Assembly: GCF_044324785.1 (NCBI RefSeq)
Contig: NZ_CP172127.1
Length of the DNA stretch: 64,000 bases
Reading direction: 5' to 3' (one strand)
Origin: Escherichia coli
Lineage (GTDB): Bacteria; Pseudomonadota; Gammaproteobacteria; Enterobacterales; Enterobacteriaceae
The position numbers and the translations under genes are program-made. This document shows positions 26,841 to 55,810 of the stretch, piece by piece; position 1 is the first letter of the stretch, and every line of letters begins with the position of its first letter. The notes below the pieces were generated by a model. That model saw nothing but the letters and a program-made list of their open reading frames with translations, was not told the DNA's origin and ran no database searches.

Positions 26841-29302
26841 CGCAATCCTTTTATTTCTGGCGTACGCTCTTTAAGGCATCCGGCTGAGAGGCTAATGATC
26901 ACTCCTCGCTCACAACGGACCTTCAGCTCAGCCGCTCCGGCCGCTTCATGCCATGAATGTACGCAGCCAGTCAGAATATTAAGGTGCGGATTTCAGTTCA
27001 CTTGTCAGCCCAGTGATACAGGACAGTAATGACCAACAATTTGGTATTGATACAACAAGTTGCGGCCCCGGTTCGTGGGGGAGATGAAACGACGGTAGCT
27101 GAAGTTACTGAAATGAAGAATTCAGAGAGACTGAATGATATGCCTCACCTTTAGTGAATAGTGTAAAAACGGGAGACTCTCACCCGAGATTATCCACTCA
27201 TGCTCAATGTATAATTTTCGTGCCCCTCACAGGTAAGAGCCGGATGCATTCGTTGTGTACGTTGCAGAATTGGTAACCGGGGACCCTGCAGTCTTTAACT
27301 CCGAGTCTTGTGCTGCTCATTTGCCACAAAATCCTGGTACGCCAGCTCAATCATTTCATTCAACAGTTTTTTTGGGGGGCACCACGACTTCGGGCAATAC
27401 TTTCAGGCTGTTTGTGGATTTTTCCGGACAGTTTCAGCGGAACGGAACCATCAGCACGTTCATCACGCCTTTTTTGTTGCTCCCGGGCACTTTTCAGTTC
27501 ATCCACAATATAGCTGCTCTTCTCGCATTTTTGCCGATTTTAAAAATGCGAACAAAACATCCGTACATGATGTACAGATTAAACTGCCAGGGACTGGTGT
27601 CAGAAAGCCTCCGGTTAGCCTGCTCTTTCCGGAATGTGCCGGTTATGAAAAACCGGAAATTCAGTCTCTGTTGTAAGATGTACCCTCTGATACTACGTTT
27701 TCGTTTTCTCTGTGTATTTAACTCACTGTATTTATTGTCTTTTTAAGCCTGACTGATATTCTCCGGTCATAGTGTGCCGGATAGACATCCCGTAACCTTC
27801 TCATTTTTATATAAAAATACCTGCACTGTCTTCAGCGCATCTGTCTCCTTTAAGTAAAAAATGTTTTCACGTATTGCTGTAAATTCATTTTAAATCAGTA
27901 TGTTATCCTGATATTGCTGTCTCCTGGTTTGATGCGTAATCGTTCTGCCTTTCTGGATGATTCTGGTGCTTCCGGGTGCATTCTCCTCTGCACATGCAAC
28001 AGTTCGTCATCGCCACGTGCCCAAAAAGCATATAAAAACGAATCGAATCTGATCGTTTTTTCAATCGTTTTTCACAGGAATTTCGTAGGGTGTTCTCCGC
28101 TATAGCCTCCATATTTGCTGTCTTTTTCTTCATAAATCGTATGCAATATAACCAGTCTGTCAAGACATCTTCCCTGCTGTTGAGGTGACGATCTCATTTC
28201 TGGTCTTTTCCGGGAGAGAGACGGTCAGATGAGCGAGCCGGATTTACTGCCAGAGGTACTCCCCGCGGCAGAAAATAGTGCTCCTGTTTCCGCAATCCGG
28301 GATCGGCAACGTCCCATGGTTAATGCCACTTGCAGCGTCAGGCACTGCAGGTTTACGTCGTGATCTGATTTCTTCTGCACTTATCCCGATCACGGAAGTT
28401 CCCCCTGCGCAGACATCGGTTCCTGCCGACATCTCACAATACCGCCAGGCTGTCATGCAGTAACACCCGCAATGCGGTCTGCGGTTTTAAGCGCACTCTC
28501 CTGTTTTCAGTGCACCGATAAGCGTTATAGAAAGTCTGGGGTGAGTTACTGAATGTCTGTTAAGTGGTGCCGTGGGTGGAGACTGCTTACTTTTCCACAG
28601 CAACTGCAGTCATTCAGGATGCTCAGGAGAGAATATGTCAACGCCACGAGCCGGGCCATTTTCATGCCAGCCAGTATATTTTCTACACTGATGCAGTCTG
28701 ATTTTCACCATTCCATCCTCACTGATTGTCGTGTTGTTTTGGGTCATCACCACAGCTTTCCGTTTCTCTTTTAATCGGTAACGCTCTCCTTTGATATTCA
28801 GCGTGGTTGAGTGATGCAGCAGTCAATCCAGGAGCGCTGTTGTCCGGCAACCACCATATCAACTTCTTCCCGGCGTGCCGGCGCTGGTATCCAGGCCGGG
28901 TTTCGAAGCGAAGCGTTCCTGACGGACTCATTGACATCCGGGCCGGATGTAGTCATGCAGCATGGAACGTCCGCCCGTATACACTGACGGCGTCCGGCCG
29001 TGTACAGAGATCGGTAAAATTCGTTACTACAACTGTTCCTGAATATCTGACGAAGAAACATTCAGCAATAACATCCGGCCGTGTACATCTCTTTTGCGGT
29101 GCAGGGAGCACTGTCGCCATGTACTTATTGTCACCAGGGTGAGGCATGTACCGCAGCATGCCAGCTCAGCAATGACAGGATGCCCTTAAGACATCCGTCA
29201 TGGCTCAGTATGATGACGACGAACACGCTCTGCAGGTGAGCATGCAGGGCCGGGGGTATCATCATTTCCGTATTTTGCCGCACCTTCCGGAAACAACCGG
29301 CA

Positions 29303-29920
29303 TCAGTTACGGTTACCGTCAACCGTTGTGCGGTATGCCAGGAGCACGTACTGATCCATCAGATCCGTCAGTGCTGCGTTCTGCTTCTGACGGTCGATGA
29401 TCCATTCCCCCAGCTCTTTTTCTGATTTCCGTTTCAGGTTCTCCGTCCAGTCGTCAAGGCTGTTTCCGGTCATTAAATCAAGCCAGCAAAGCCAGACCAG
29501 TTTGAGGCGCAACTCCGTGCCACCAAACTGACGGAAGAGGCTGATCAGTTTATTTGCCAGAGAACGCTGCCTCAGACGTTCACATTCAGACAGCAGAATC
29601 CCTTCCAGCATCGGATGATGAACCAGCAGATGTTCGCTGGTGCATAAGTTCACCACCAGATCATCATCCAGGGGCGGCGTGGCCCGTTTGTCAGAGCCAT
29701 AAATCAGCCGGTGCAGACTCCGGGGTACGATGGCAATCTTCGGTTTTTCACCATTGAATGACACCCACCCGGGCGTCAGATTATGGAAGTAGTGGATATT
29801 CGGATGACACACGCCCCAGGATACGGCGTGCCGGGTGAAGCCGGTCAGCCATTTCTGGTAGCTTTCGTGGAGCAGCTCGTAACGGGTCTGATACTGTGGT
29901 TTCATTTTCATATTCCTCAC
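29303..29920 (-). CDS. hypothetical protein downstream of alpA
   Basis: 205-aa ORF on the same strand, 79 bp after alpA; no recognisable motif. Confidence 0.5.
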   Translation of the reverse strand: MRNMKMKPQYQTRYELLHESYQKWLTGFTRHAVSWGVCHPNIHYFHNLTPGWVSFNGEKPKIAIVPRSLHRLIYGSDKRATPPLDDDLVVNLCTSEHLLVHHPMLEGILLSECERLRQRSLANKLISLFRQFGGTELRLKLVWLCWLDLMTGNSLDDWTENLKRKSEKELGEWIIDRQKQNAALTDLMDQYVLLAYRTTVDGNRN

Positions 29921-29998
29921 GGGGGATAACAGGCAGCAGAGTGCCGCCGGCAGGCCGGAGATTGCGTCTGCTGTGGGCGAAGGGCCAGTGGTTAAAAA

Positions 29999-30205
29999 TT
30001 ACGGACGGGACTGTGCAATACGCGCCTGCAGCCAGGCTTCCACTTCACTTTTCAGCCAGCGGGAGCTGCGGCCGAGTTTGATGGGAGCCGGAAAGGCCCC
30101 ATCCTTGATGAGCTTGTAAAACCACTTATCGGTCAGGCCGGTCAGCTGAGTGATAAACGTCATATCGACCATCTGGTCATCCATCAGCGAAACTGGGGTG
30201 GTCAT
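29999..30205 (-). CDS. alpA: AlpA-family phage/island transcriptional regulator
   Basis: 68 aa; FITQLTGLTDKWFYKLIKDGAFPAPIKLGRSSRWLKSEVEAWL is the AlpA/MerR-like excisionase-type HTH. Confidence 0.8.
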   Translation of the reverse strand: MTTPVSLMDDQMVDMTFITQLTGLTDKWFYKLIKDGAFPAPIKLGRSSRWLKSEVEAWLQARIAQSRP

Positions 30206-30588
30206 AAAAATCTTCTCCGGATGTTGTTAATCTCAGCCGGCGTTGATGATGAAAACAACGCACCACCTTCACCGGCATAACAACCGGGGAGAAACGTAAA
30301 AAATCAGTAGGGGAATATTCCTGCCAGGAGAGAAACTGTTGTGTACAGGCAATACAGGTTGTCTGTTTTGTCAGTGAAGCCGGTATAAACGGAAGATGAT
30401 TTTGTGTTGCCGGAATATGGGATGGCGTTTTGCCGTGACAGGATCAGTATTTTCAGTGATGATTATTACTGTGCAGGGGAGTACCGGAGATAAACCACGC
30501 CCTGTACCTGCCAGAGCGGAGGTTTGTATTGACTGAACGGAAGATAAAGCGAGGTAAACACTGTTGCGGTGAGCGGAGAAGACTGAGA

Positions 30589-31380
30589 TTATTCTCTGTA
30601 ATTACAAACAACAGTGATCTGATCCGGTTTTTTTACCGTTACGGGTTTCCGGGGATCAATTTTATAGACCGGGGTAATGACCACGCCGGAATTTATGGAG
30701 AAAAGCGGGATCCAGCAATAAACGTCCGGATATTTCTGTGTCTCCGGAATACCTTTTGTGCCAGAGGCCATCAGATCTTTAACGCTCACGAAAAATGACT
30801 TCCGCAGATCAAAAAAGTACTCGTTATATATCACATCCTTTGCCAGCAGGATGACTGCATTACCAACAGCCGATTTTACAGGTGTTTCATCAGGTGGATT
30901 ATCGTGATTGTATATTGTTCTTTCTATATAAATAAAACAGGCATATTTCGTCTTCTCCCCGGATAGTTGCATCTGGTATTCGCAAATGTCTTTGATATAC
31001 CGACTTTCAACCCTTCCAATCATCTTATCCCGGCGATAGTGTCTTTTATGTTTCAGCGCGTACAGAACACCATTTGAACTGTCAAACTCCAGGACACTTC
31101 TGGTGAAAAGTTTGTTTTCCCAGATCTCCAGACAATACTTCTCTGCACTGACGACATTGCGTTTGTGGGGAAGATTCCGTTGATACACTCCATTTAATAA
31201 GCGTGACTGCAGTTCGCCTGCAAGTTGATAGTAACAGTTAATGTCATTAAGGACAGGTGCTGTGGCGTTGAGTAATGTGTTGATTACCTTAGAGCGCGAA
31301 AGTTTGTGGGTATGACAGTACTCATCCACAATTCGCAGTGTCTCATCACTGGTCATATTGAAAGTTATACGTGTTGTCAT
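30589..31380 (-). CDS. hypothetical protein: N-terminal ribbon-helix-helix-like domain fused to an unknown ~200-aa domain
   Basis: 263 aa, low GC; N-terminus ITFNMTSDETLRIVDEYCHTHKLSRSKVINTLL resembles a CopG/Arc RHH; remainder has no recognisable motif. Confidence 0.5.
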   Translation of the reverse strand: MTTRITFNMTSDETLRIVDEYCHTHKLSRSKVINTLLNATAPVLNDINCYYQLAGELQSRLLNGVYQRNLPHKRNVVSAEKYCLEIWENKLFTRSVLEFDSSNGVLYALKHKRHYRRDKMIGRVESRYIKDICEYQMQLSGEKTKYACFIYIERTIYNHDNPPDETPVKSAVGNAVILLAKDVIYNEYFFDLRKSFFVSVKDLMASGTKGIPETQKYPDVYCWIPLFSINSGVVITPVYKIDPRKPVTVKKPDQITVVCNYRE

Positions 31381-31719
31381 GATGAAGTTTTCTGTTAATC
31401 ATACTGGTTGATATGCATAACATTTCATAAAAAATACTGTTAATTCATATAATTGATTTTTTGACTGGTTTTATCCTCGTGTGGTGGAAAGCAGTATTAC
31501 TGCCACTGTAGTCAGCATAAATCTATCACACAGAACCACCGAAAATGAAGCATTGCTCAGGGGGAAGCTGCCACTCGTATGAGTTCTCTGAACCATGATA
31601 ACCAGTATTTTTCGTTTTGGGTGATTTGTTTATCGTTACAGCTACATACAGTTCATGTACCATTAAAAAATAATAAAGGTTAATTAGTATTATTTATAGA
31701 AGTATGTTTATGTAATTCT

Positions 31720-31765
31720 ACCGTGTAAATGAACCCTGTAATTCTACCTTGTAAATACACCTTGT
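31720..31765. repeat. tandem direct repeats TGTAATTCTACC(G/T)TGTAAAT in a 1.4-kb non-coding region
   Basis: Two adjacent copies plus multiple dispersed (C)TGTAA motifs between 31700 and 31930. Confidence 0.4.
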
Positions 31766-32797
31766 AACCAAGTCCTGTAGAAGTCTGTCTCATAGAAGTA
31801 TCTGTGCAGTGATATTCTCTGTAGTAGTACTTGTAACTCTGTTCTTAACTCTCTCTTCAGTAATGTAGTCCCGCAACACCTGAATATAAATCTGTAATGT
31901 TCACACACTGACTGTAACGTGCTTTGTTAAGTAATGTCTGCTATTTTTTTTTCTGTTATTTTTCCTGTTGTTTTCTGTATTTTGTTGTATGGTGTAATAA
32001 CTATTCTGAACCCGTCATCACCTTTATAGCTAAGAGTATGACTTCGCCAGTGTTGATACTGTGGATAACGGTGATTAAGGAATTACTGTTAATGATCTGT
32101 TCCTGCAGCTCACCTGATGAGTTTTGGTAGTAATACGTAAAAGAGTATGCCTCATGTCATTAAAAAGTCTTCCGGAGTGTTGTTTAACCCTGTACCTCTG
32201 TTACTCATGTAGTACGTTGCGGAAAGCTACGTTAATTGTAATATCTGGTTATGGCGTTATGCCTTCAGTATTAAAAACATCTTTTACCGGAGAAACTGGG
32301 AAGTGGAAAGGCTTTCGGGATAACGTCAGGCCATTATGACGATATTACGTTAATCACAGTACAAGATAACGAGAGGGTAATGGAATTTTAAACCAGAGTA
32401 GTTCCACTGTTGTTCACTGGAAAAAGTGATTTCCCACGCGCGTTATAAGCTTACTCCAGAGGAGATGGAAGCCTTCAACTCTGCGGTCGATCACCGGCTG
32501 GCAGAACTGACCATGAACAAACTTTACGATCGTGTTCCCGCTTCAGTCTGGAAATATGTTACCTGATAAATGTTTCTGATGAAGTACAGTCGTCACAATG
32601 ACATCACTTCAGATATTATCTGCGCTGTGATTGACTGTCACGTATGCCGTTCTCTGTATGGTTCTGATACCCGGGTGTGGTCCCACTTTCTCTGTGGCGC
32701 CCGGGGAGTTGTGAACCTGCACGTCTTCGTGTGATAACGTTTTCTTCAAAAATTACGCCAGCGCTTCTTCCTGTGTTACAGAACACGAGGAAGAAAC

Positions 32798-33397
32798 ATG
32801 AAGACTTACAACACCAATCCCGGTTACGAAATGGATCCCCAGCTCCTGACACACTTTAACCAGCATCTGGATTCATTATTCGGGGTATATTCGAAACTGT
32901 TACCGTTCAGAATGGATTTTGCTTACCGAAAAAACACCCTCAGCTACAGATGTGCCTGCAGGTACGCCATGTGCGCGGAGATACTGCGACTGATTAACGA
33001 AGTGGGAGAGAAACTGGTCGGGTATGCCTGGGTAATGGAATATACGGAACGTAAAGGGCTTCACATTCATTTTGTGGGCTATCTGAACGGTCAGAGCCAC
33101 AGGAGTTCGTATCTGGTATCCAGATTGATGGGAGATATCTGGAGGCGGGTTACCGGGGGGGATGGTTACTACCACTGGTGCCGGTTTAATAAAAATTATC
33201 CGGTAAACATTAACCACGTCATTCACTATTCAGATCACAAAGCGGTGAATGCCTTACGCTATGCCATCAGCTACCTGGCCAAACGAGAACAGAAAGAATG
33301 TGGCATCATCCTGAAATGCAGCGGGCTTCCTGAAAAAAGTAATCGGGGTCGACCGCGACTGGGCAGCCCCCTGCCGGAGACTTATTCTCTGGTGTAA
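32798..33397 (+). CDS. inovirus Gp2-type / YagK-YfjJ family protein (HUH replication-initiator-like)
   Basis: 199 aa; HUH-like LHIHFVGY motif; SD GAGGA. Confidence 0.65.
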   Translation: MKTYNTNPGYEMDPQLLTHFNQHLDSLFGVYSKLLPFRMDFAYRKNTLSYRCACRYAMCAEILRLINEVGEKLVGYAWVMEYTERKGLHIHFVGYLNGQSHRSSYLVSRLMGDIWRRVTGGDGYYHWCRFNKNYPVNINHVIHYSDHKAVNALRYAISYLAKREQKECGIILKCSGLPEKSNRGRPRLGSPLPETYSLV

Positions 33398-33762
33398 GAC
33401 CCTGAACGACAACTACGGGCTGGCGCTAATTGTTACAGTCGGTTCCGGAGGCCACTTCAGGGACTCTGCGCATTTTTTACGACATGGCTATTCCGTATGA
33501 ACCATACGGAGATTTAACCATGGCACATTCTTTACCATTCCTTCCGGCAACCGATACAGCACATCCTCCGATGTCCATCCCTGCCTGCTGACAGTTTTTT
33601 ACGCCGGAGGGCCATTGTGTGACAACCACAGTGCTGTAACAGCAACCAGCCTGCTTTACCCAAACTCCAGTCCAGATTTTAACTGAACCGCCATTCACAC
33701 CCTGACCACACTGCCCGTACCGGGACAGCTGTTGCCTGCGTGTCGTCTGGCTGCTGAGGAAT

Positions 33763-34152
33763 ATGACGATGTACGCAAAATCCTTTATTGCATTTGATGG
33801 CAACGGGCGTCTGACGGGTGCCCGTACCGCACAGACTGCACCTTACGATCGCTACACTTGCCACCTTTGCGGCAGTGCGCTCAGATACCACCCGCAATAC
33901 GACACTGAGCGTCCCTGGTTTGAACACACTGACGACGGGCTGACGGAGCACGGTCAGCAGTGCCCTTATGTCAGACCGGAACGCAGGGAGATACAACTGA
34001 TTAAGCGTCTGCAGCAATTCGTACCGGATGCCTTACCCGTGGTGCGTAAAGCCAGCCGGCACTGCAGACAATGTCATCACGATTATTATGGGGAGCGGTA
34101 CTGCACGCACAGCCATACCGGGCACTTCAGTGAGGAGGGGGTGGCAGAATGA
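33763..34152 (+). CDS. small zinc-ribbon protein (paralog 1 of a tandem pair)
   Basis: 129 aa; CHLCGSAL...WFEH followed by a C-terminal CxxC/His cluster; stop overlaps next start (ATGA). Confidence 0.5.
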   Translation: MTMYAKSFIAFDGNGRLTGARTAQTAPYDRYTCHLCGSALRYHPQYDTERPWFEHTDDGLTEHGQQCPYVRPERREIQLIKRLQQFVPDALPVVRKASRHCRQCHHDYYGERYCTHSHTGHFSEEGVAE

Positions 34153-34574
34153 ACGGTATAAAAACGGGGCTGGGGATCACGCCGGGTGAACACATTATCA
34201 GTGCTGATTCTGCGCTCAGCAGAAATATCCGGCAGTGTTTCTGCCTTTCCTGTCATGGCCGGTTGATTTTGCAGACAGATGCTCAGGGGGCGTGGTTTGA
34301 GCACGATTTACATGTCCTGAGCGAGCAACAGAAGGCAGCCTGCGTGGTGCTGAATCCGGAAAAGTCCCACCCTTACATTGAGGATATGGAGATGTTTTTA
34401 TCGCCATTACCGGTCGTGCTGGAGTGGCATTGTGTGATGTGTGAGCAGTTTTTTCATGGGAAGAAATTCTGTGAGGCCTGTGGTACGGGGATTTATTGCA
34501 GAGCGGTATGTACGAAGTCTGTTTACAGCTACCAGCCAGACTTGTTTCAGGACTGCGGAGGTGCGAGTACTTAA
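34149..34574 (+). CDS. small zinc-ribbon protein (paralog 2 of a tandem pair)
   Basis: 141 aa; CLSCHGRL...WFEH and CVMC...CEAC motifs parallel the upstream gene. Confidence 0.5.
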   Translation: MNGIKTGLGITPGEHIISADSALSRNIRQCFCLSCHGRLILQTDAQGAWFEHDLHVLSEQQKAACVVLNPEKSHPYIEDMEMFLSPLPVVLEWHCVMCEQFFHGKKFCEACGTGIYCRAVCTKSVYSYQPDLFQDCGGAST

Positions 34575-35045: not shown

Positions 35046-35612
35046 ATGTATACAGAATCAAATGTTAAGCTTTCCTGTAACGCCCTCTGGCAAAAGTGTG
35101 TCCTTGCAACTCTGTATCGGGCTGCAGCCACACATCCTGAAATTAAATTATTACAATTTAAATTAATACCAGGGCAGGGTATTAATAAGGCCATTCCCTC
35201 TCTGATGGCTGATTTTACTGGTGAACTGCATAGACTCATTTCTGAATATTTGCAGTGTAAGCGACGTAAAGAGCAATCTGTTGAGCCCACCCCTTTATAT
35301 TATCTCTGGAGTAGGGAAGCTGTGGCTAACGATACCACTCCTTATCTTATGGTGCTGCTACTTAATAACGATGTCTGGTGTAAGAGTCGTGAGGTGGTGG
35401 TTCTCAGAAATCTGATTGAGCAGGCGTGGGGAAAAGTATTGGGTGAAGATAACTCCATTACACATCTGGTTGTGTATCCTGAAGTGCTGTCGTTGGTATT
35501 TGATGCAGCTAACACATACAACGCTGAGCCTGCTGTACTGGAACAGACGGCCCGGGCTTACATTGAATCACATGGTACCATTGAACGTCATCTTGGGTGT
35601 AGTGACTTTTAA
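35046..35612 (+). CDS. YagK-like (inovirus Gp2-type) protein with degenerate HUH motif
   Basis: 188 aa; YLWSRE...PYLMVLLLNNDVWC aligns with the HYHVILLLNKDTWC motif of the 57669 paralog but lacks both His. Confidence 0.6.
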   Translation: MYTESNVKLSCNALWQKCVLATLYRAAATHPEIKLLQFKLIPGQGINKAIPSLMADFTGELHRLISEYLQCKRRKEQSVEPTPLYYLWSREAVANDTTPYLMVLLLNNDVWCKSREVVVLRNLIEQAWGKVLGEDNSITHLVVYPEVLSLVFDAANTYNAEPAVLEQTARAYIESHGTIERHLGCSDF

Positions 35613-42868: not shown

Positions 42869-44131
42869 CTATTTTAATGGATTGTTAATCTTTGCATATT
42901 CAAACGGGCTGATACATTGTTCTCTGTTCGCACCCAGAAAATCTGCCCACCACTGTAGCATCAGTCGACGTTCTTCCAGATGTTCTGCTTTATGGATATA
43001 TGCAGCACGTACACCATTACGCTCCTGATGGCTCATCTGACGTTCCACAGCATCGCGGGACCACAAACCTGATTCAATCAATGCACTGCACGCCATCGCC
43101 CGGAATCCATGACCACAGACTTCCTGGGTTGTGTCATATCCCATCACCCTCAGGGCTTTATTTACAGTATTTTCACTGATCGGTTTACGCGGGTCATGTG
43201 CTCCCGTAAAGATCAGACCATTTTCACCAGCCCATGTCTGTAGTTCTGTCAGTATGGCTACAGCCTGTTTGCTGAGTGGCACAAGATGTGGTGTTCGCAT
43301 CTTGGAGCCCCGGTGTGAGTATTTTACGCCTGGCAGAGGTTCGCGTTCGGCTGGAATAGTCCACATGGCATTGTCAATATCAATTTCAGACCAGCGGGAA
43401 TATCTGAGTTCACTGGAACGAATAAAAACCAGTAAATTCAGCATAACTGCCAGTCGGGTGACAGGCTGACCTTTATAACCGTCAATACGCGACAGAAGTT
43501 CAGGCAGGCGTGAAAGATCCAGAGCAGGGCGATGCTGGCGTTTTACCGTGGTCAATGCACCAGCCATATCCAGAGCCGGGTTATATCTGATGATGCCAGA
43601 CTGTACGGCATAACGCATTACAGCAGATATTCTTTGCTGCAGACGACTGGCGATTTCATAAATTTGTTTTGCTTCTGCAGCACGAACAGGGATAAGCAGG
43701 TCCGGGGTATTGAGTGTTGTGATATCCCGGTTGCCGATAAAGGGGAAAACGTGTGTCTCGAGGCTTTTGATTACTTTATCGCTGTGTGATTGTGCCCATT
43801 GTTTATTACTGGCATGCCAGCGTCGTGCAATATGTTCAAAAGAGAGTTGTAAATCAGGGACTACTTTTTTAGCTCTTTTTTGTTCGCAAGGGTCAATCCC
43901 CTCTGAAATCAGTTTTCGGGCCTCATCCCGTTTTGTACGAGCTTCGGAGAGAGAAACTTCTGGATATACACCAAGTGCCAGAGTCTTCTCCTTACCCAGA
44001 ATACGATAACGGAGACGCCAGTAACGGGAACCATTAGGATGAACCAGCAGGAACATGCCAGCCCCGTCAGTGAGTTTATAAGCCTTGTCAGTGTGCTTTG
44101 CAGCCCGGATTTTTGCGTCAGTCAGTGCCAT
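42869..44131 (-). CDS. P4-type (IntA-like) tyrosine integrase
   Basis: 420 aa; MALTDAKIRAAKHTDKAYKLTDGAGMFLLVHPNGSRYWRLRYR N-terminus typical of P4-family integrases; next to tRNA-Phe 3'-end repeat. Confidence 0.85.
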   Translation of the reverse strand: MALTDAKIRAAKHTDKAYKLTDGAGMFLLVHPNGSRYWRLRYRILGKEKTLALGVYPEVSLSEARTKRDEARKLISEGIDPCEQKRAKKVVPDLQLSFEHIARRWHASNKQWAQSHSDKVIKSLETHVFPFIGNRDITTLNTPDLLIPVRAAEAKQIYEIASRLQQRISAVMRYAVQSGIIRYNPALDMAGALTTVKRQHRPALDLSRLPELLSRIDGYKGQPVTRLAVMLNLLVFIRSSELRYSRWSEIDIDNAMWTIPAEREPLPGVKYSHRGSKMRTPHLVPLSKQAVAILTELQTWAGENGLIFTGAHDPRKPISENTVNKALRVMGYDTTQEVCGHGFRAMACSALIESGLWSRDAVERQMSHQERNGVRAAYIHKAEHLEERRLMLQWWADFLGANREQCISPFEYAKINNPLK

Positions 44132-44328: not shown

Positions 44329-44347
44329 TGGTGCCCGGACTCGGAAT
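44329..44347. repeat. 19-bp direct repeat of tRNA-Phe 3' end (att site)
   Basis: TGGTGCCCGGACTCGGAAT is the reverse complement of the tRNA-Phe 3' terminus; sequence diverges from the tRNA beyond 19 nt. Confidence 0.6.
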
Positions 44348-44594
44348 GAAACTGGTTGTATAACAAGTTGTTTTATATTGATTGTTTTGTGTTTGTTATT
44401 TTTGAGGCCACCAATGAGGCCCCCATGTGCAATTCGAATTCTTTTGACGCTATAATCCCTCTTTCTTGTGGTTTGTTGTAATCATTTTGTCTGGTTCGAT
44501 ATGCTGAATCGCGGAATCGAAGTGACAACAAAATACAGAGATTTATAAAATACCTGGCTACCTGTGTTAGGGAGCGTTAACGCACAGATTTTGT

Positions 44595-52044: not shown

Positions 52045-52929
52045 TCAGAACAGACGCTCCCACAGTGTGATCAGCAGGTGGATAATGCGGTCCCGGGCTT
52101 TACGCAGAAGCTGTAACATCCAGGCCGGAAAACTGAAACGGGCAACGGCGACGTCAAAACTTTTCCCGATGGTTTCACCAAAAGTCTGTTGTGCGTGTTT
52201 CTGGGCCTGTTCAGAGCGGTTTTCTCCCCGGATATGTGAATACACCGCGCTGGTTGCCTGTGGTGGCAGTGCGTGGATCATCAGCGACACAAACGCCGGA
52301 AGGTTCCAGCCGACAGGTGCAGCAACGGAGAGTACCGGAAATGATGAAGGGAACAGGGTTGCCACCCGGGCTGTCACCGTCGCCAGTGAGAGCGACTGCT
52401 GACGGGACGGGCATTTTTCTGTGGCATTCCATTCTTCAGCAGGAAACACGCGATCGGCATGGCTGAGAACAAACAGAAAACGCGAGGGATCTGCGCCTTC
52501 ATTCAGTAAAAACTGATGCATGGCAATATCAGCAGCATACGCACGTTCATCAGCCCGCAGGATCCAGATAATCAGATCCAGTTCCGGTAGCAGCTGACGA
52601 TAAAGTGTCCGGTATTCCTGATCATGCTGCGGTGTTTCACCAATGCCGGGCAGATCGACCAGCGTCATTCTGCGTTCACCGAACTGCAGGGTAAGACGAT
52701 GAGCCTGGCGGGTGCAGCCGTTCAGAGGATGTGTGGCGCAGATACGGGACTGAAAAATGGCATTACACAGACTGCTTTTGCCTGTTCCGGATTTACCCAT
52801 AATGCCAATCACGGGCTCGTAATGAATAACACTGTGGAGATGTTCAAGGATTTTCTGGCGAATTTCTTCAGGAAGAAACGTCAGATGTGATTTCACTTGT
52901 GCGGAGAGGGAAGAATGGCTGAATGACAT
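52045..52929 (-). CDS. YeeP/YfjP-family GTPase, second copy
   Basis: P-loop GIMGKSGTGKSSL; 294 aa. Confidence 0.75.
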   Translation of the reverse strand: MSFSHSSLSAQVKSHLTFLPEEIRQKILEHLHSVIHYEPVIGIMGKSGTGKSSLCNAIFQSRICATHPLNGCTRQAHRLTLQFGERRMTLVDLPGIGETPQHDQEYRTLYRQLLPELDLIIWILRADERAYAADIAMHQFLLNEGADPSRFLFVLSHADRVFPAEEWNATEKCPSRQQSLSLATVTARVATLFPSSFPVLSVAAPVGWNLPAFVSLMIHALPPQATSAVYSHIRGENRSEQAQKHAQQTFGETIGKSFDVAVARFSFPAWMLQLLRKARDRIIHLLITLWERLF

Positions 52930-53034: not shown

Positions 53035-53997
53035 ATGACGGCACAACAAAGTGATGCGCTGCGTGAGATTGCTAATAAGGCCAGAGTTACCACCATTCTT
53101 CAGTGTAAGGCCTGGAAAGATACCCAGCGAATACTGAAGCGCAGCGGACTCGTGTGCAGAGAACGGTCAGAGCCGTTTGATCCGGAGAAACATTTTGACT
53201 GTTATACGGTGCGTTATCTGTACCTGCTTAACATAATGGCACTTGAGCTAAAGTCAGATACACGGATTAAGGTTGAGGTGGGGCAATGGTATCGCATGAC
53301 GGGTAAACGTTTATCACTTAATGTCCCGCCTTTTATGCTGATCCCGCGTAATATCCGGAGAAAAGTGGACGGATTCAGACAATCCAGACAATCAGAAGAT
53401 GAAGCAACCAAAAATCCGCCTCAACCGTTCACGGGCAGTTTGTATAAGGTTTTGAGCAGGGACAGCGATTCGGCTGAGCTGGACGCCTGGTTTGCTGAAC
53501 CGCCGCTGACACGGCAGGAAGTGTGGGAGGGGAGGCGTGTTACAGATTTTGATCCATGGGCGCTGTCTTCGTTTATTTGCCGTTCAGAATCCCCGACGTT
53601 TGAACTTTTTTACCAGGAATATAAGCGACTGGGATTAAAATCTCTTTTTGTATCAGGGGTAATGTTTGAACAGTTTTTAACAGGGCTAAGTTTCAGAAAA
53701 TATGGGGACTGGGTTGAATCTCAGTTACTGGAATCACTGGGAAATGTGATGTTTTTCATGCTGCTTTATGACATGGAAAATCTGGATAAGTTTATAAAAG
53801 AACTGATGGACATTAATGTTCAAAGTGAAGATTCGAAGGAAAAAGGGAAATCACGAAAAGAGAGAATGCTGGAGTATATCAACTCATATATCCGCAATGT
53901 TTATGGAAGATTCCTTTGTACGTCAAAAGAAAGGTACGAACAGCATAAACGCAAAAACAGCAGCAAAAAGAAAAACGGTTCTGGTGGAACTCATTAA
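53035..53997 (+). CDS. hypothetical protein (orphan)
   Basis: 320 aa, ATG with GGGAGG SD; Lys-rich C-terminus; no recognisable motif. Confidence 0.5.
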   Translation: MTAQQSDALREIANKARVTTILQCKAWKDTQRILKRSGLVCRERSEPFDPEKHFDCYTVRYLYLLNIMALELKSDTRIKVEVGQWYRMTGKRLSLNVPPFMLIPRNIRRKVDGFRQSRQSEDEATKNPPQPFTGSLYKVLSRDSDSAELDAWFAEPPLTRQEVWEGRRVTDFDPWALSSFICRSESPTFELFYQEYKRLGLKSLFVSGVMFEQFLTGLSFRKYGDWVESQLLESLGNVMFFMLLYDMENLDKFIKELMDINVQSEDSKEKGKSRKERMLEYINSYIRNVYGRFLCTSKERYEQHKRKNSSKKKNGSGGTH

Positions 53998-54848
53998 CGG
54001 GAATAATCCCCTGCTGTTTTCTGCATAAACAGACGATCAGCTGATAAGATGAGTTTATCCAGCATTTCAGCCTGCGTCAGATTATTCTTTTTTGCCATTT
54101 TCCGGAGTGCATTCCTGGCTTCCGGAGAAATCAGGGCACTTATCTGTACCCGGGAATCGGTTTTCTCATACCGGAACATTTTCTGGTATGAGCACTTCAT
54201 GCGCCTGAGAAAATCATTCTGCTGATAAACTAATTCTTTTAACTTTTGAGGTTCAGTACCGACAGAATAGATTTTCATGAAGACACGGCGCACATAAGCT
54301 ATTATGAACAGACGTGACTCCCCTGAAGCTTTAAATTCTGAAATATCAGGACAGTGACGTTCTTCGTCAGTGCAATGTTTTTGCAGATACGCCCATGCCC
54401 ATTTGATATGTATCCGCCGGGAACCAAGCCATGTCATGGGGTTCACTTTTTCAGCATATGACCATAAAAAATGAACGACATACAAGAAGTCAGATACATT
54501 TTCTGTCCCGGTTAGCCTTATAAGCTCCTGTAGCCATTTTCTCGTCACACGAATCCTTGCCTGATGATTAGCTGGAGCTGCTTCTGTGGCAAACAGTCTG
54601 GCATACAGACAGGAAGTTCCGTAATCTGCATATTGCTCACCTGAGAGTCGGACAATACTGTCAGGAACATGATATATAAACATCCATACCCAGAATGCGG
54701 CTACAGGGTCTTTTTGCACCCACTCCGGAACAACGTCTCTGCCTGCATTATCAGCATTAACAGAAGGTGATTTATCGTTATGTCGGTAATATTCATATTC
54801 CATCCGACTAAAAACATGATCAGATTCATCTGGTGAATGCACAGACAT
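53994..54848 (-). CDS. hypothetical protein with C-terminal RHH-like segment
   Basis: Track ORF 53994-54863; preferred start MSVHSPD preceded by AGGGAG; 3' end overlaps the convergent gene by 4 bp. Confidence 0.5.
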   Translation of the reverse strand: MSVHSPDESDHVFSRMEYEYYRHNDKSPSVNADNAGRDVVPEWVQKDPVAAFWVWMFIYHVPDSIVRLSGEQYADYGTSCLYARLFATEAAPANHQARIRVTRKWLQELIRLTGTENVSDFLYVVHFLWSYAEKVNPMTWLGSRRIHIKWAWAYLQKHCTDEERHCPDISEFKASGESRLFIIAYVRRVFMKIYSVGTEPQKLKELVYQQNDFLRRMKCSYQKMFRYEKTDSRVQISALISPEARNALRKMAKKNNLTQAEMLDKLILSADRLFMQKTAGDYSR

Positions 54849-55810
54849 GAACTCCCTGGGCATAAATGCACAACCAACTCTATAGAACTCTTTACCCCCC
54901 CTCTTATCACCTCTGTCAGTAAATTTCGCCTGAATCCCCTTTTATCCATACATCAGAAAAAATGCAATAACGTTCATGGACTCTTTTCTCTGATTTACAT
55001 AAAAACACAGAAAATTACAATGTGATTAATATCGCGTTTTTTTAAAAAATTATATTGACATCATGTTATTTCCTGTAGTTTGCAATAAAAAATTTTCTTA
55101 AAATATTTATATGAATATTTTTGATGCCTCAACATGCTGTCGTTATATAGAGTGTCTTCTCATCATTTATGGTTATTTCTCTCAATGCGCATACGCTCTG
55201 TCAGGGCATGTCTGTAGCTGCCATGATGGGGAATGAGAACTCAGCAAAAGGATTTTGGATGCAGTGAAGTTCTCCCGGAGACGGTTCTTCTGAGGTGGGG
55301 GTGGCATCATATCCTCTTACATAAGATGATGGCGTGCGCGGGAAAGCTTTCTTCTGTACTCAGGTTGTTGTTGGTTATCCCCGGTCGTCATTGTTTTCCT
55401 GACATTAAGATCCTGATTCCAGGATCTATAGCACAGTCGTTTCCTTGTGTGCTGTTATGCTTCTGCTCAGTTCAGAACAATTGCTTCATCCGGCATGGAG
55501 AATTCCGGTGAGTGAGGCAGTAAGAAATGACTGACATGAATGTTATATGTGAAGGGGCCGGAGAGACGTCATAATCAGTATGGCTGTCATTCTGGCTGGA
55601 AAATGCGATCACTTTCCGGGGTAAAAGACAACATGGAAGCTGACGAACGGGATGCTCCGGATGGTCTTTTCAGGGAGGCCTGGGTAAATAATTTCAGAGT
55701 AAATCTGTATGTTTTTTAAACAGTAAAGATCCATGCTGGCCGTGAAAAACTGAAATCAACACTCAGTCTGCATGGATGTCTGAAGATGTTGAGAATGTCG
55801 GGAATGGTAC

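Follow-up and report, generated by a model that had tools for sequence, protein, structure and literature searches.

What is the function of the 263-aa protein encoded beside alpA in a genomic island of Escherichia coli? Its gene lies on the minus strand of a 64,000-nt stretch of E. coli DNA, referred to here as the window. An original prediction, made from the letters alone, had placed an open reading frame (ORF) of this length there, in agreement with the ORF listing, and had described its product as a ribbon-helix-helix (RHH) N-terminus fused to a domain of its own. The protein is identical to RefSeq entry WP_002431077.1, which carries the label 'YagM family protein' in the annotation of strain TUM9803, and by its sequence it is a member of the catalogued YagM family (PF27701 / UCP007319), a family without assigned function. 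We propose, with confidence that is about evenly balanced, that the YagM-family protein acts as an autoregulating RHH DNA-binding regulator of the backbone of CP4/SRL-type islands in Enterobacterales. The proposal is based on a best-conserved RHH domain that goes together with a conserved palindromic site at the 5' end of the gene. It is further based on the gene's place as a separate transcription unit on the hinge that joins the excision/HUH module to the long right-arm operon, and on a C-terminal domain that is never found apart from the RHH domain.

The structure of the protein was modelled with AlphaFold2 on a 22-sequence alignment (A1), and the monomer model reached a pLDDT of 79 and a pTM of 0.65. 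In this model, residues 1-11 are unstructured and are followed by two helices (residues 12-25 and 29-62), a disordered linker (63-78), and an alpha+beta domain (79-258). In a dimer model, in which two copies were tethered by a 40-residue Gly/Ser linker (A3), residues 3-9 form strands in both copies, in contrast to the coil of the monomer. The predicted order is that of an RHH domain, with an N-terminal beta strand preceding two helices. The nearest structural relatives of the N-terminal domain are ParD-type antitoxins (5ceg_A, 6xrw_D). ParD/CopG-type RHH proteins, exemplified by CopG (2cpg), show the same strand-helix-helix order with a long second helix, and CopG has an R-x-T strand and an S-x-S turn. 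When the family profile was compared with solved structures, it returned CopG residues 1-38 alone (E=0.83), and the K-R-I/L-T strand and the S-x-S turn were aligned. The N-terminal domain is also the best-conserved part of the family (majority fraction of 0.54, compared with 0.41 in the C-terminal domain); R4-I-T-F is widely retained, and S28 and S30 are near-invariant. The sequence similarity of the window protein to ParD/CopG proteins is below significance, and the latter are 45-100 aa long and occur with a partner toxin or alone, whereas here there is an extra 185-aa domain and no toxin neighbour.

The C-terminal domain has no fold match beyond its own family in a Foldseek search of AFDB50. 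The top matches all belonged to the same family, some of them labelled 'CopG family'. At ranks 27-36 the search listed uncharacterised enterobacterial proteins, mostly of 280-330 aa, from Cedecea, Kluyvera, Serratia, Buttiauxella and Escherichia marmotae, with E values from 1e-4 to 1e-2 and a TM of about 0.3. The domain (~185 aa) gave no match in local Pfam-A, NCBIfam, PHROGs, or PADLOC, and the structure prediction and Foldseek search that had been suggested as a check on it matched no characterised enzyme or structural protein. A profile search with this domain recovered full-length PF27701 proteins (245-270 aa) and shorter, mostly partial entries; none showed it in another architecture or without the RHH domain. 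The predicted fusion of an RHH N-terminus to a domain without known relative is supported, at the level of modelling, by AlphaFold2 and Foldseek. The statement that this domain has no recognisable motif holds for library matches; the whole protein, however, is already catalogued as PF27701/UCP007319 under the name 'YagM family protein'. An N-terminal RHH domain with a C-terminal oligomerisation or sensor domain is known from NikR, TrwA and Mnt, and the window protein resembles them in having a C-terminal domain behind its RHH domain. The site recognised by NikR is a palindrome of 28 bp whose half-sites are widely spaced. The C-terminal ACT-like metal-binding tetramerisation domain of the NikR type was not found in the window protein.

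A candidate operator was found directly upstream of the gene, in the form of a 28-bp imperfect inverted repeat (Table 1). In an alignment of the upstream regions of eight loci, whose proteins are only 21-57% identical, the sole invariant block was GTTATGCA ... ATGnnTAAY just before the start codon, and the remainder was divergent. The general form of the repeat is GTTATGCAT-N10-ATGnnTAAC. A pattern search found it once per locus, at a constant distance from the start codon, in all loci of the gene arrangements A and C described below and in locus L008. It is perfectly palindromic in L011 and L012 (GTTATGCAT-N10-ATGCATAAC) and near-perfect in L008, with one mismatch at the outermost base. The repeat is unique in the window, where 0.14 matches would be expected by chance. 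The half-site in its ideal form contains the small palindrome ATGCAT, and in L006 and L015 a further copy of the half-site variant of the respective locus lies upstream. We also considered the repeat as an RNA hairpin and rejected this reading: the hairpin is weak, it is not formed in L006, and the substitutions break the pairing, none of them being compensatory. Because the substitutions break the pairing and the RNA hairpin is weak, a protein-binding DNA site appears to be the more likely reading of the repeat.

The genes around the YagM-family gene keep the same company in changing order. It is linked to alpA and yagK in the window, in the CP4-6 island of K-12, and in 15 further loci with enough flank; alpA always lies at most about 2.5 kb away, and so does yagK/yfjJ, and their order and orientation vary. 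Every informative locus shows yagM next to yagK, whether the two genes diverge or belong to one string, and in the window they are within 1.5 kb of each other. In arrangement A (Citrobacter, Pectobacterium, Klebsiella, Hafnia, Cedecea, Enterobacter, Buttiauxella), the series yagK, alpA and a homologue of a 205-aa protein gene is divergent from the YagM-family gene, and in most cases the latter is followed directly by the island GTPase gene and then by genes for DUF932, YfjS, YfjT, DUF905, antirestriction, RadC, CbeA, and CbtA; in Citrobacter and Klebsiella other genes stand between it and the GTPase gene. Arrangement B, found in CP4-6 of K-12 and in the metagenomic locus L010, has an alpA-like gene, yagM, yagL, and yagK in this order and in a single direction. 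Arrangement C is that of the window and all E. coli copies inspected. Its left side consists of hha, yagK1, two zinc-ribbon genes, and yagK2, transcribed in this order and divergent from the YagM-family unit, and its right side runs from the YagM-family gene through alpA, the 205-aa protein gene, and variable cargo to GTPase, Ag43 and beyond. The cargo differs by locus and includes TIR and protease genes, Dpd, type I restriction, iron uptake, and MFS/LysR genes. Because the position of the YagM-family gene is constant while the cargo varies, the gene is part of the backbone of CP4/SRL-type islands and not of their cargo. The original prediction placed it directly upstream of alpA and in the same orientation, which is correct for the window (383 bp) but specific to E. 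coli. To call it a master regulator of alpA goes too far, since in arrangement A the gene is divergent from yagK-alpA and in CP4-6 of K-12 it lies downstream of the alpA-like gene.

A possible mechanism can be put together from these data. The N-terminal 60 residues would fold as an RHH domain, which is the step backed by modelling. Two chains would then pair their R4-I-T-F-N8 strands into a beta ribbon that reads the major groove, as the linked-dimer model weakly suggests. The conservation and position of the inverted repeat point to it as the site that the protein would bind, just before its own start codon, and the ATGCAT of each half-site would suit one RHH dimer per half-site. In this way the protein would repress its own transcription and probably also that which starts from the shared control region and runs divergently toward hha-yagK; read-through into alpA may be limited as well in E. 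coli. The C-terminal domain might, more speculatively, hold two dimers together, receive a signal, or do both. Its overall part in the island would be to determine how strongly two units are expressed, namely, the excision/replication module and the long 'right arm' operon (GTPase, Ag43, DUF932, antirestriction, RadC, CbeA/CbtA). Among the roles considered for this protein at the outset, a putative RHH repressor with an extra domain is best supported, and the RHH fold, the palindromic site, the constant place in the backbone, and the occurrence of the C-terminal domain solely in fusion with this RHH domain speak for such a role.

Several observations weigh against the autoregulator. The RHH region of the linked dimer is of low confidence (pLDDT of 51-66, residues 3-9 included). 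The RHH matches of the sequence profiles are sub-threshold, both for CopG and for the NCBIfam RHH family aCcr1, which matched residues 6-33 with E=0.0025 and 17.7 bits at a cut-off of 60, and local Pfam-A gave no match. The inverted repeat is absent upstream of K-12 yagM and of the gene in L010, that is, in arrangement B, where the gene lies inside the alpA-yagM-yagL-yagK string. The palindromes of the two half-sites are ~16 bp apart from centre to centre, which would place two dimers on opposite faces of the DNA. The repeat could also be bound by another protein, such as AlpA, YagK, Hha/H-NS, or IHF. Finally, matches to the promoter consensus overlap the repeat or lie ahead of it in some loci, but they were no more frequent than expected by chance and were inconsistent between loci.

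Table 1. Features in and around the YagM-family gene of the window.
Feature	Position	Strand	Remarks
YagM-family gene	30589-31380	-	263 codons, ATG start; ORF listing
RHH DNA-binding domain (predicted)	31195-31380	-	codons 1-62; extended second helix
alpha+beta C-terminal domain, family-specific	30607-31146	-	codons 79-258; without known fold relative
Imperfect inverted repeat GTTATGCAT-N10-ATGATTAAC, candidate operator	31394-31421		28 bp; 14-41 nt upstream of ATG
Extra half-site-like copy ATGAATTAACAG	31437-31448	-	~45 nt further upstream; read from the sequence; related repeats D5, I3; weak
Weak terminator-like hairpin	30498-30518	-	consensus scan; between YagM-family gene and alpA
alpA / rox-type excisionase-family gene	29999-30205	-	68 aa; TIGR01764 excisionase domain, E=1.5e-4; Phage_AlpA Pfam on homologues
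205-aa hypothetical protein gene	29303-29920	-	after alpA in most loci with enough flank
13-nt-period TTACA tandem array	31711-31767		Tandem Repeats Finder; overlaps consensus promoter-like matches on the minus strand
T-rich tandem array	31947-31983		Tandem Repeats Finder
Hha/YmoA-family gene, N-terminally disrupted	32417/32426-32566	+	RefSeq; 49-aa protein annotated
YagK/YfjJ ('inovirus Gp2-type') protein gene	32798-33397	+	199 aa; HUH and YxxK motifs; divergent from YagM-family gene

The constant neighbourhood of yagK raises the question of whether the protein instead serves the YagK/YfjJ nuclease. It could be an accessory DNA-binding factor for this HUH nuclease at a rolling-circle or transfer origin in the yagK-yagM intergenic region, where it would help or control nicking after island excision, with autoregulation possibly as a side effect. 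We regard this as possible but rather unlikely; it overlaps with the autoregulator, since both require site-specific DNA binding. In the alignment of the YagK family (A5), H89-x-H91 and Y159-x-x-K162 are near-invariant, and the homologues of YagK carry precomputed Pfam matches to REP_ORF2-G2P / YagK_YfjJ_C. H-x-H together with Y-x-x-K is the signature of HUH nucleases. RHH accessory proteins that adjoin HUH relaxases or initiators are the rule on plasmids (TrwA/R388, NikA/R64, CopG-RepB/pMV158), and TrwA, besides repressing its own operon, assists an HUH relaxase. In pMV158 the gene of the RHH repressor adjoins that of the HUH initiator, and the order in CP4-6 and L010 mirrors copG-repB; in contrast to CopG, the window protein is six times larger, and in most loci the RHH and HUH genes are divergent. 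The adjacency of yagM and yagK in every informative locus and the iteron-like 13-nt repeats in the E. coli intergenic region also fit an accessory factor. So does a 289-aa ORF (53994-54863, minus strand) in a second CP4-like island of the window, which lies upstream of a GTPase gene (52045-52929) and is non-homologous to YagM. At its C-terminal end is an RHH-like segment (aa 235-274) with matches to the replication-regulator families RepA2/CopB (E=7.5e-5) and RepB-RCR_reg. This ORF looks like a positional analogue of the YagM-family gene, which lends indirect support to a 'regulator slot' and counts for the autoregulator as well. However, the conserved repeat lies against the start of yagM, 330-1400 bp away from yagK, the 13-nt repeats are not conserved beyond E. 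coli, and no conserved hairpin resembling a nick site was found. We know of no demonstration of YagK-driven replication or transfer of CP4/SRL-type islands.

The structural relationship to ParD-type antitoxins also brings up an effector fused to an antitoxin-like RHH domain, that is, a single-chain toxin-antitoxin, abortive infection or other defence protein, in which the C-terminal domain would be the active part and the RHH domain would serve autoregulation or sensing. The lack of known relatives of the C-terminal fold would suit such an effector, and in the 22-sequence alignment the domain has near-invariant polar residues (E125, R154, D191); in addition, the islands carry defence cargo and the CbtA/CbeA pair. 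Nevertheless, we consider this role improbable. No catalytic motif, conserved catalytic signature, or known fold was recognised in the C-terminal domain. PADLOC-DB 2.0 gave no match for the window protein, K-12 YagM, or the immediate neighbours, and the whole window protein had no match in local Pfam-A, PHROGs, or PADLOC. No toxin partner adjoins the gene: its neighbours are alpA, the 205-aa protein gene, hha, and yagK, with no toxin family match and no gene for a ParE/RelE-fold toxin among them. The position of the gene in the backbone is fixed, and the defence cargo lies elsewhere and is variable. The family is narrow (39 clusters at 50% identity) and is found in one island type, not spread across defence islands. 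The single-gene defence or abortive-infection protein of the original prediction is left without support by the missing PADLOC match, the fixed position, and the missing catalytic signature.

The gene itself is real and intact, and its presence in 758 genomes, the intact alleles, and the dN/dS ratios show that it is under purifying selection. It was found in 758 of the 5426 complete E. coli genomes, with 95-100% identity and on the chromosome in every case, and at least 80% of its length is covered in all but eight of these copies (750/758), which are usually labelled 'hypothetical protein'. The surrounding stretch 29000-33500 (4.5 kb) is 100% identical to several complete E. coli genomes, and 596 genomes hold at least 80% of it. 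The reading frame is unbroken in all five alleles compared, and pairwise dN/dS among them is 0.24-0.40, with a value of 0.78 in one very close pair with few changes. The gene had been described as low in GC; its content is indeed lower than that of the window (41.9% and 47.4%, respectively), but the difference is only mild. A decaying remnant without present function, in the manner of a cryptic prophage, is very improbable: the surrounding insertion sequence (IS) elements and pseudogenes, the damaged neighbouring hha copy, the many truncated entries of the family in the databases, and the listing of K-12 yagM among uncharacterised genes in the 2024 y-ome survey (PMC11551758) would fit it, but the coverage and dN/dS values given above, the full-length orthologues of 44-57% identity in at least eight genera, and the retained upstream element stand against it.

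A search of a large protein database gave 27 clusters of homologues, with identities of 93-95% in E. coli, 52-57% in Citrobacter and Pectobacterium, and 44% in Aeromonas, and all homologues of 44-95% identity carried a precomputed PF27701 (UCP007319) assignment. The 39 clusters were counted in an exhaustive search among 1.84 billion representatives. When a single genome of each species was scanned with an alignment narrower than the full family, six loci were found (Klebsiella oxytoca, Hafnia, Cedecea, Pectobacterium, Enterobacter, and an E. coli-like contig binned as Collinsella). Judged by these sequence searches, the family is confined to Enterobacterales and Aeromonas. A truncated homologue with 95% identity is present in Shigella flexneri 2a (Q9AL54). 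The YagM protein of K-12 (b0279, CP4-6) aligns over the full length (residues 5-257) with 25% identity (E=7e-15), and both proteins share the two-domain layout in the 22-sequence alignment. K-12 YagM belongs to a distinct subfamily and is annotated with a 37-aa N-terminal extension. Its gene, like that of the window, is linked to an alpA-like gene and yagK in a comparable island, but unlike the latter it lies within the string intF-yagN-ykgV-yagM-yagL-yagK and has no upstream inverted repeat. YfjH of K-12 (CP4-57, 318 aa, divergent from alpA) was examined as a hidden member of the family and rejected, as it showed no profile similarity. Beyond lists of uncharacterised genes, the literature on the family yielded no functional paper, and the sole data point on yagM was found in an expression table (PMC5811629). 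The protein is thus not new to the databases, and its family includes a K-12 y-gene. What our analysis adds is, from modelling, support for an RHH fold and for an orphan fold of the C-terminal domain that is limited to the YagM architecture, and, from sequence comparison, the constant linkage to alpA and an HUH nuclease gene in variable order, together with a specific candidate operator.

The neighbours of the gene agree with an island of the SRL type. In TUM9803, RefSeq lists a helix-turn-helix regulator (assigned to the AlpA family in other records), an Hha/YmoA family protein, and a YagK/YfjJ domain protein beside it. The Shigella SRL island, in which the published gene order is yfjJ, hha, vis/alpA, GTPase, and Ag43, with orf41 as the Vis/AlpA homologue (PMC6980539), and CP4-57 are of the same type and have these neighbours as well. 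Rox, an AlpA-type protein, stimulates the excision of the SRL island (PMC2704930). Rox and AlpA are helix-turn-helix proteins of the excisionase family, unlike the RHH protein of the window, and the literature on SRL excision (PMC2704930) and on the family reports no role in excision for a YagM-family ORF. Homologues of the 205-aa protein (30-52% identity) adjoin alpA in loci L003, L006, L014-L016, and L018, and searches of NCBIfam, PHROGs, and PADLOC gave no match for the protein; its gene is a further uncharacterised member of the island backbone. A second YagK/YfjJ paralogue (35046-35612, plus strand) lacks H-x-H and Y-x-x-K, both of which are kept by nine other aligned members, so that this copy has probably lost its catalytic activity. 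The interval between the yagK paralogues contains two overlapping genes labelled 'putative zinc ribbon' (33763-34574, plus strand; 129 and 141 aa), which are a conserved part of the E. coli arrangement.

The intergenic region between the YagM-family gene and yagK (31381-32797) had been described as a 1.4-kb non-coding, repeat-rich sequence. RefSeq places an Hha/YmoA-family gene within it, and Tandem Repeats Finder gave two short tandem arrays only. Compared with the full-length 70-aa allele of strain PE15 (L022), the hha copy of the window (32340-32566) has lost its first 24 codons through 14-nt and 12-nt deletions. The copy number of the TTACA repeat varies among E. coli alleles from ~3.7 to 5.4, with five copies in L020, and the repeats are absent from other genera in the eight-locus upstream alignment. 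TTACA arrays were also seen in L014 (1993-2074) and L020 (8589-8669), and the promoter-like matches that the repeats overlap point toward the YagM-family gene. No RNA element was found by Rfam in 29000-34000. On the other side of the gene, toward alpA, the terminator-like hairpin was rejected, its folding energy being no better than that of shuffled sequence; a strong terminator is present in the equivalent place directly after the YagM-family gene of L011. We looked there for a yagK remnant, which would explain the E. coli rearrangement, and none was found. A 38-nt element upstream of alpA (30266-30303) is 84-86% conserved in Pectobacterium, Hafnia, Cedecea, and Enterobacter, with unrelated flanks, and may be the alpA promoter or operator.

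Further observations concern the islands as a whole. The variable cargo on the alpA side often consists of defence genes (L006, 1-4310; L011, 1-6090; L012, 1-6255), among them a type I restriction system, a Dpd cluster, and a set in which a TIR-domain protein is accompanied by a large Trypsin_2/AAA_16-domain protein and a metallo-beta-lactamase-fold protein, which suggests a defence hotspot beside alpA. The island around the gene is rich in IS elements and pseudogenes according to RefSeq. RefSeq also annotates a 78-nt 'tRNA-Ser' at ~44331-44408 (27332-27409 of L001), which adjoins an integrase gene (42869-44131). No tRNA was found at this place by ARAGORN or by Rfam at the gathering threshold, and ARAGORN found none in the entire window; the annotated gene may represent a tRNA fragment that remained at the attachment site. 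The 7.2-kb contig L014 (JAIJJM010000108.1), from a metagenome-assembled genome named 'Collinsella sp.', shows the E. coli arrangement with 92-95% protein identity and has probably been mis-binned from E. coli into an actinobacterial genome.

Few accessory elements are as common in E. coli and Shigella as CP4/SRL-type islands, on which adhesins (Ag43), resistance loci, toxin-antitoxin pairs, and defence cargo are found. We know of no account of what silences these islands or triggers their excision. A bolder extension of our proposal, which we consider doubtful, is that YagM-family proteins are the long-missing maintenance repressors of these islands, the inactivation of which by a signal would lead to AlpA/Rox-dependent excision and to YagK-dependent rolling-circle replication or mobilisation. 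The RHH domain would then sit on the palindromic operator at the island hinge, and the orphan-fold domain would act as a sensor, with a helper phage or plasmid protein, or stress, as the inactivating signal. If this were true, 'cryptic prophages' of this kind would be inducible satellites or mobilisable elements, and the family would form a new class of repressors with a role comparable to that of Stl of the staphylococcal islands. For the autoregulator, a family named after an uncharacterised K-12 y-gene gains a concrete hypothesis, namely, an RHH protein, a 28-bp site, and neighbouring targets. If it is correct, the control point of CP4/SRL-type islands would be identified, and a new effector or oligomerisation fold would be added to the RHH regulators.

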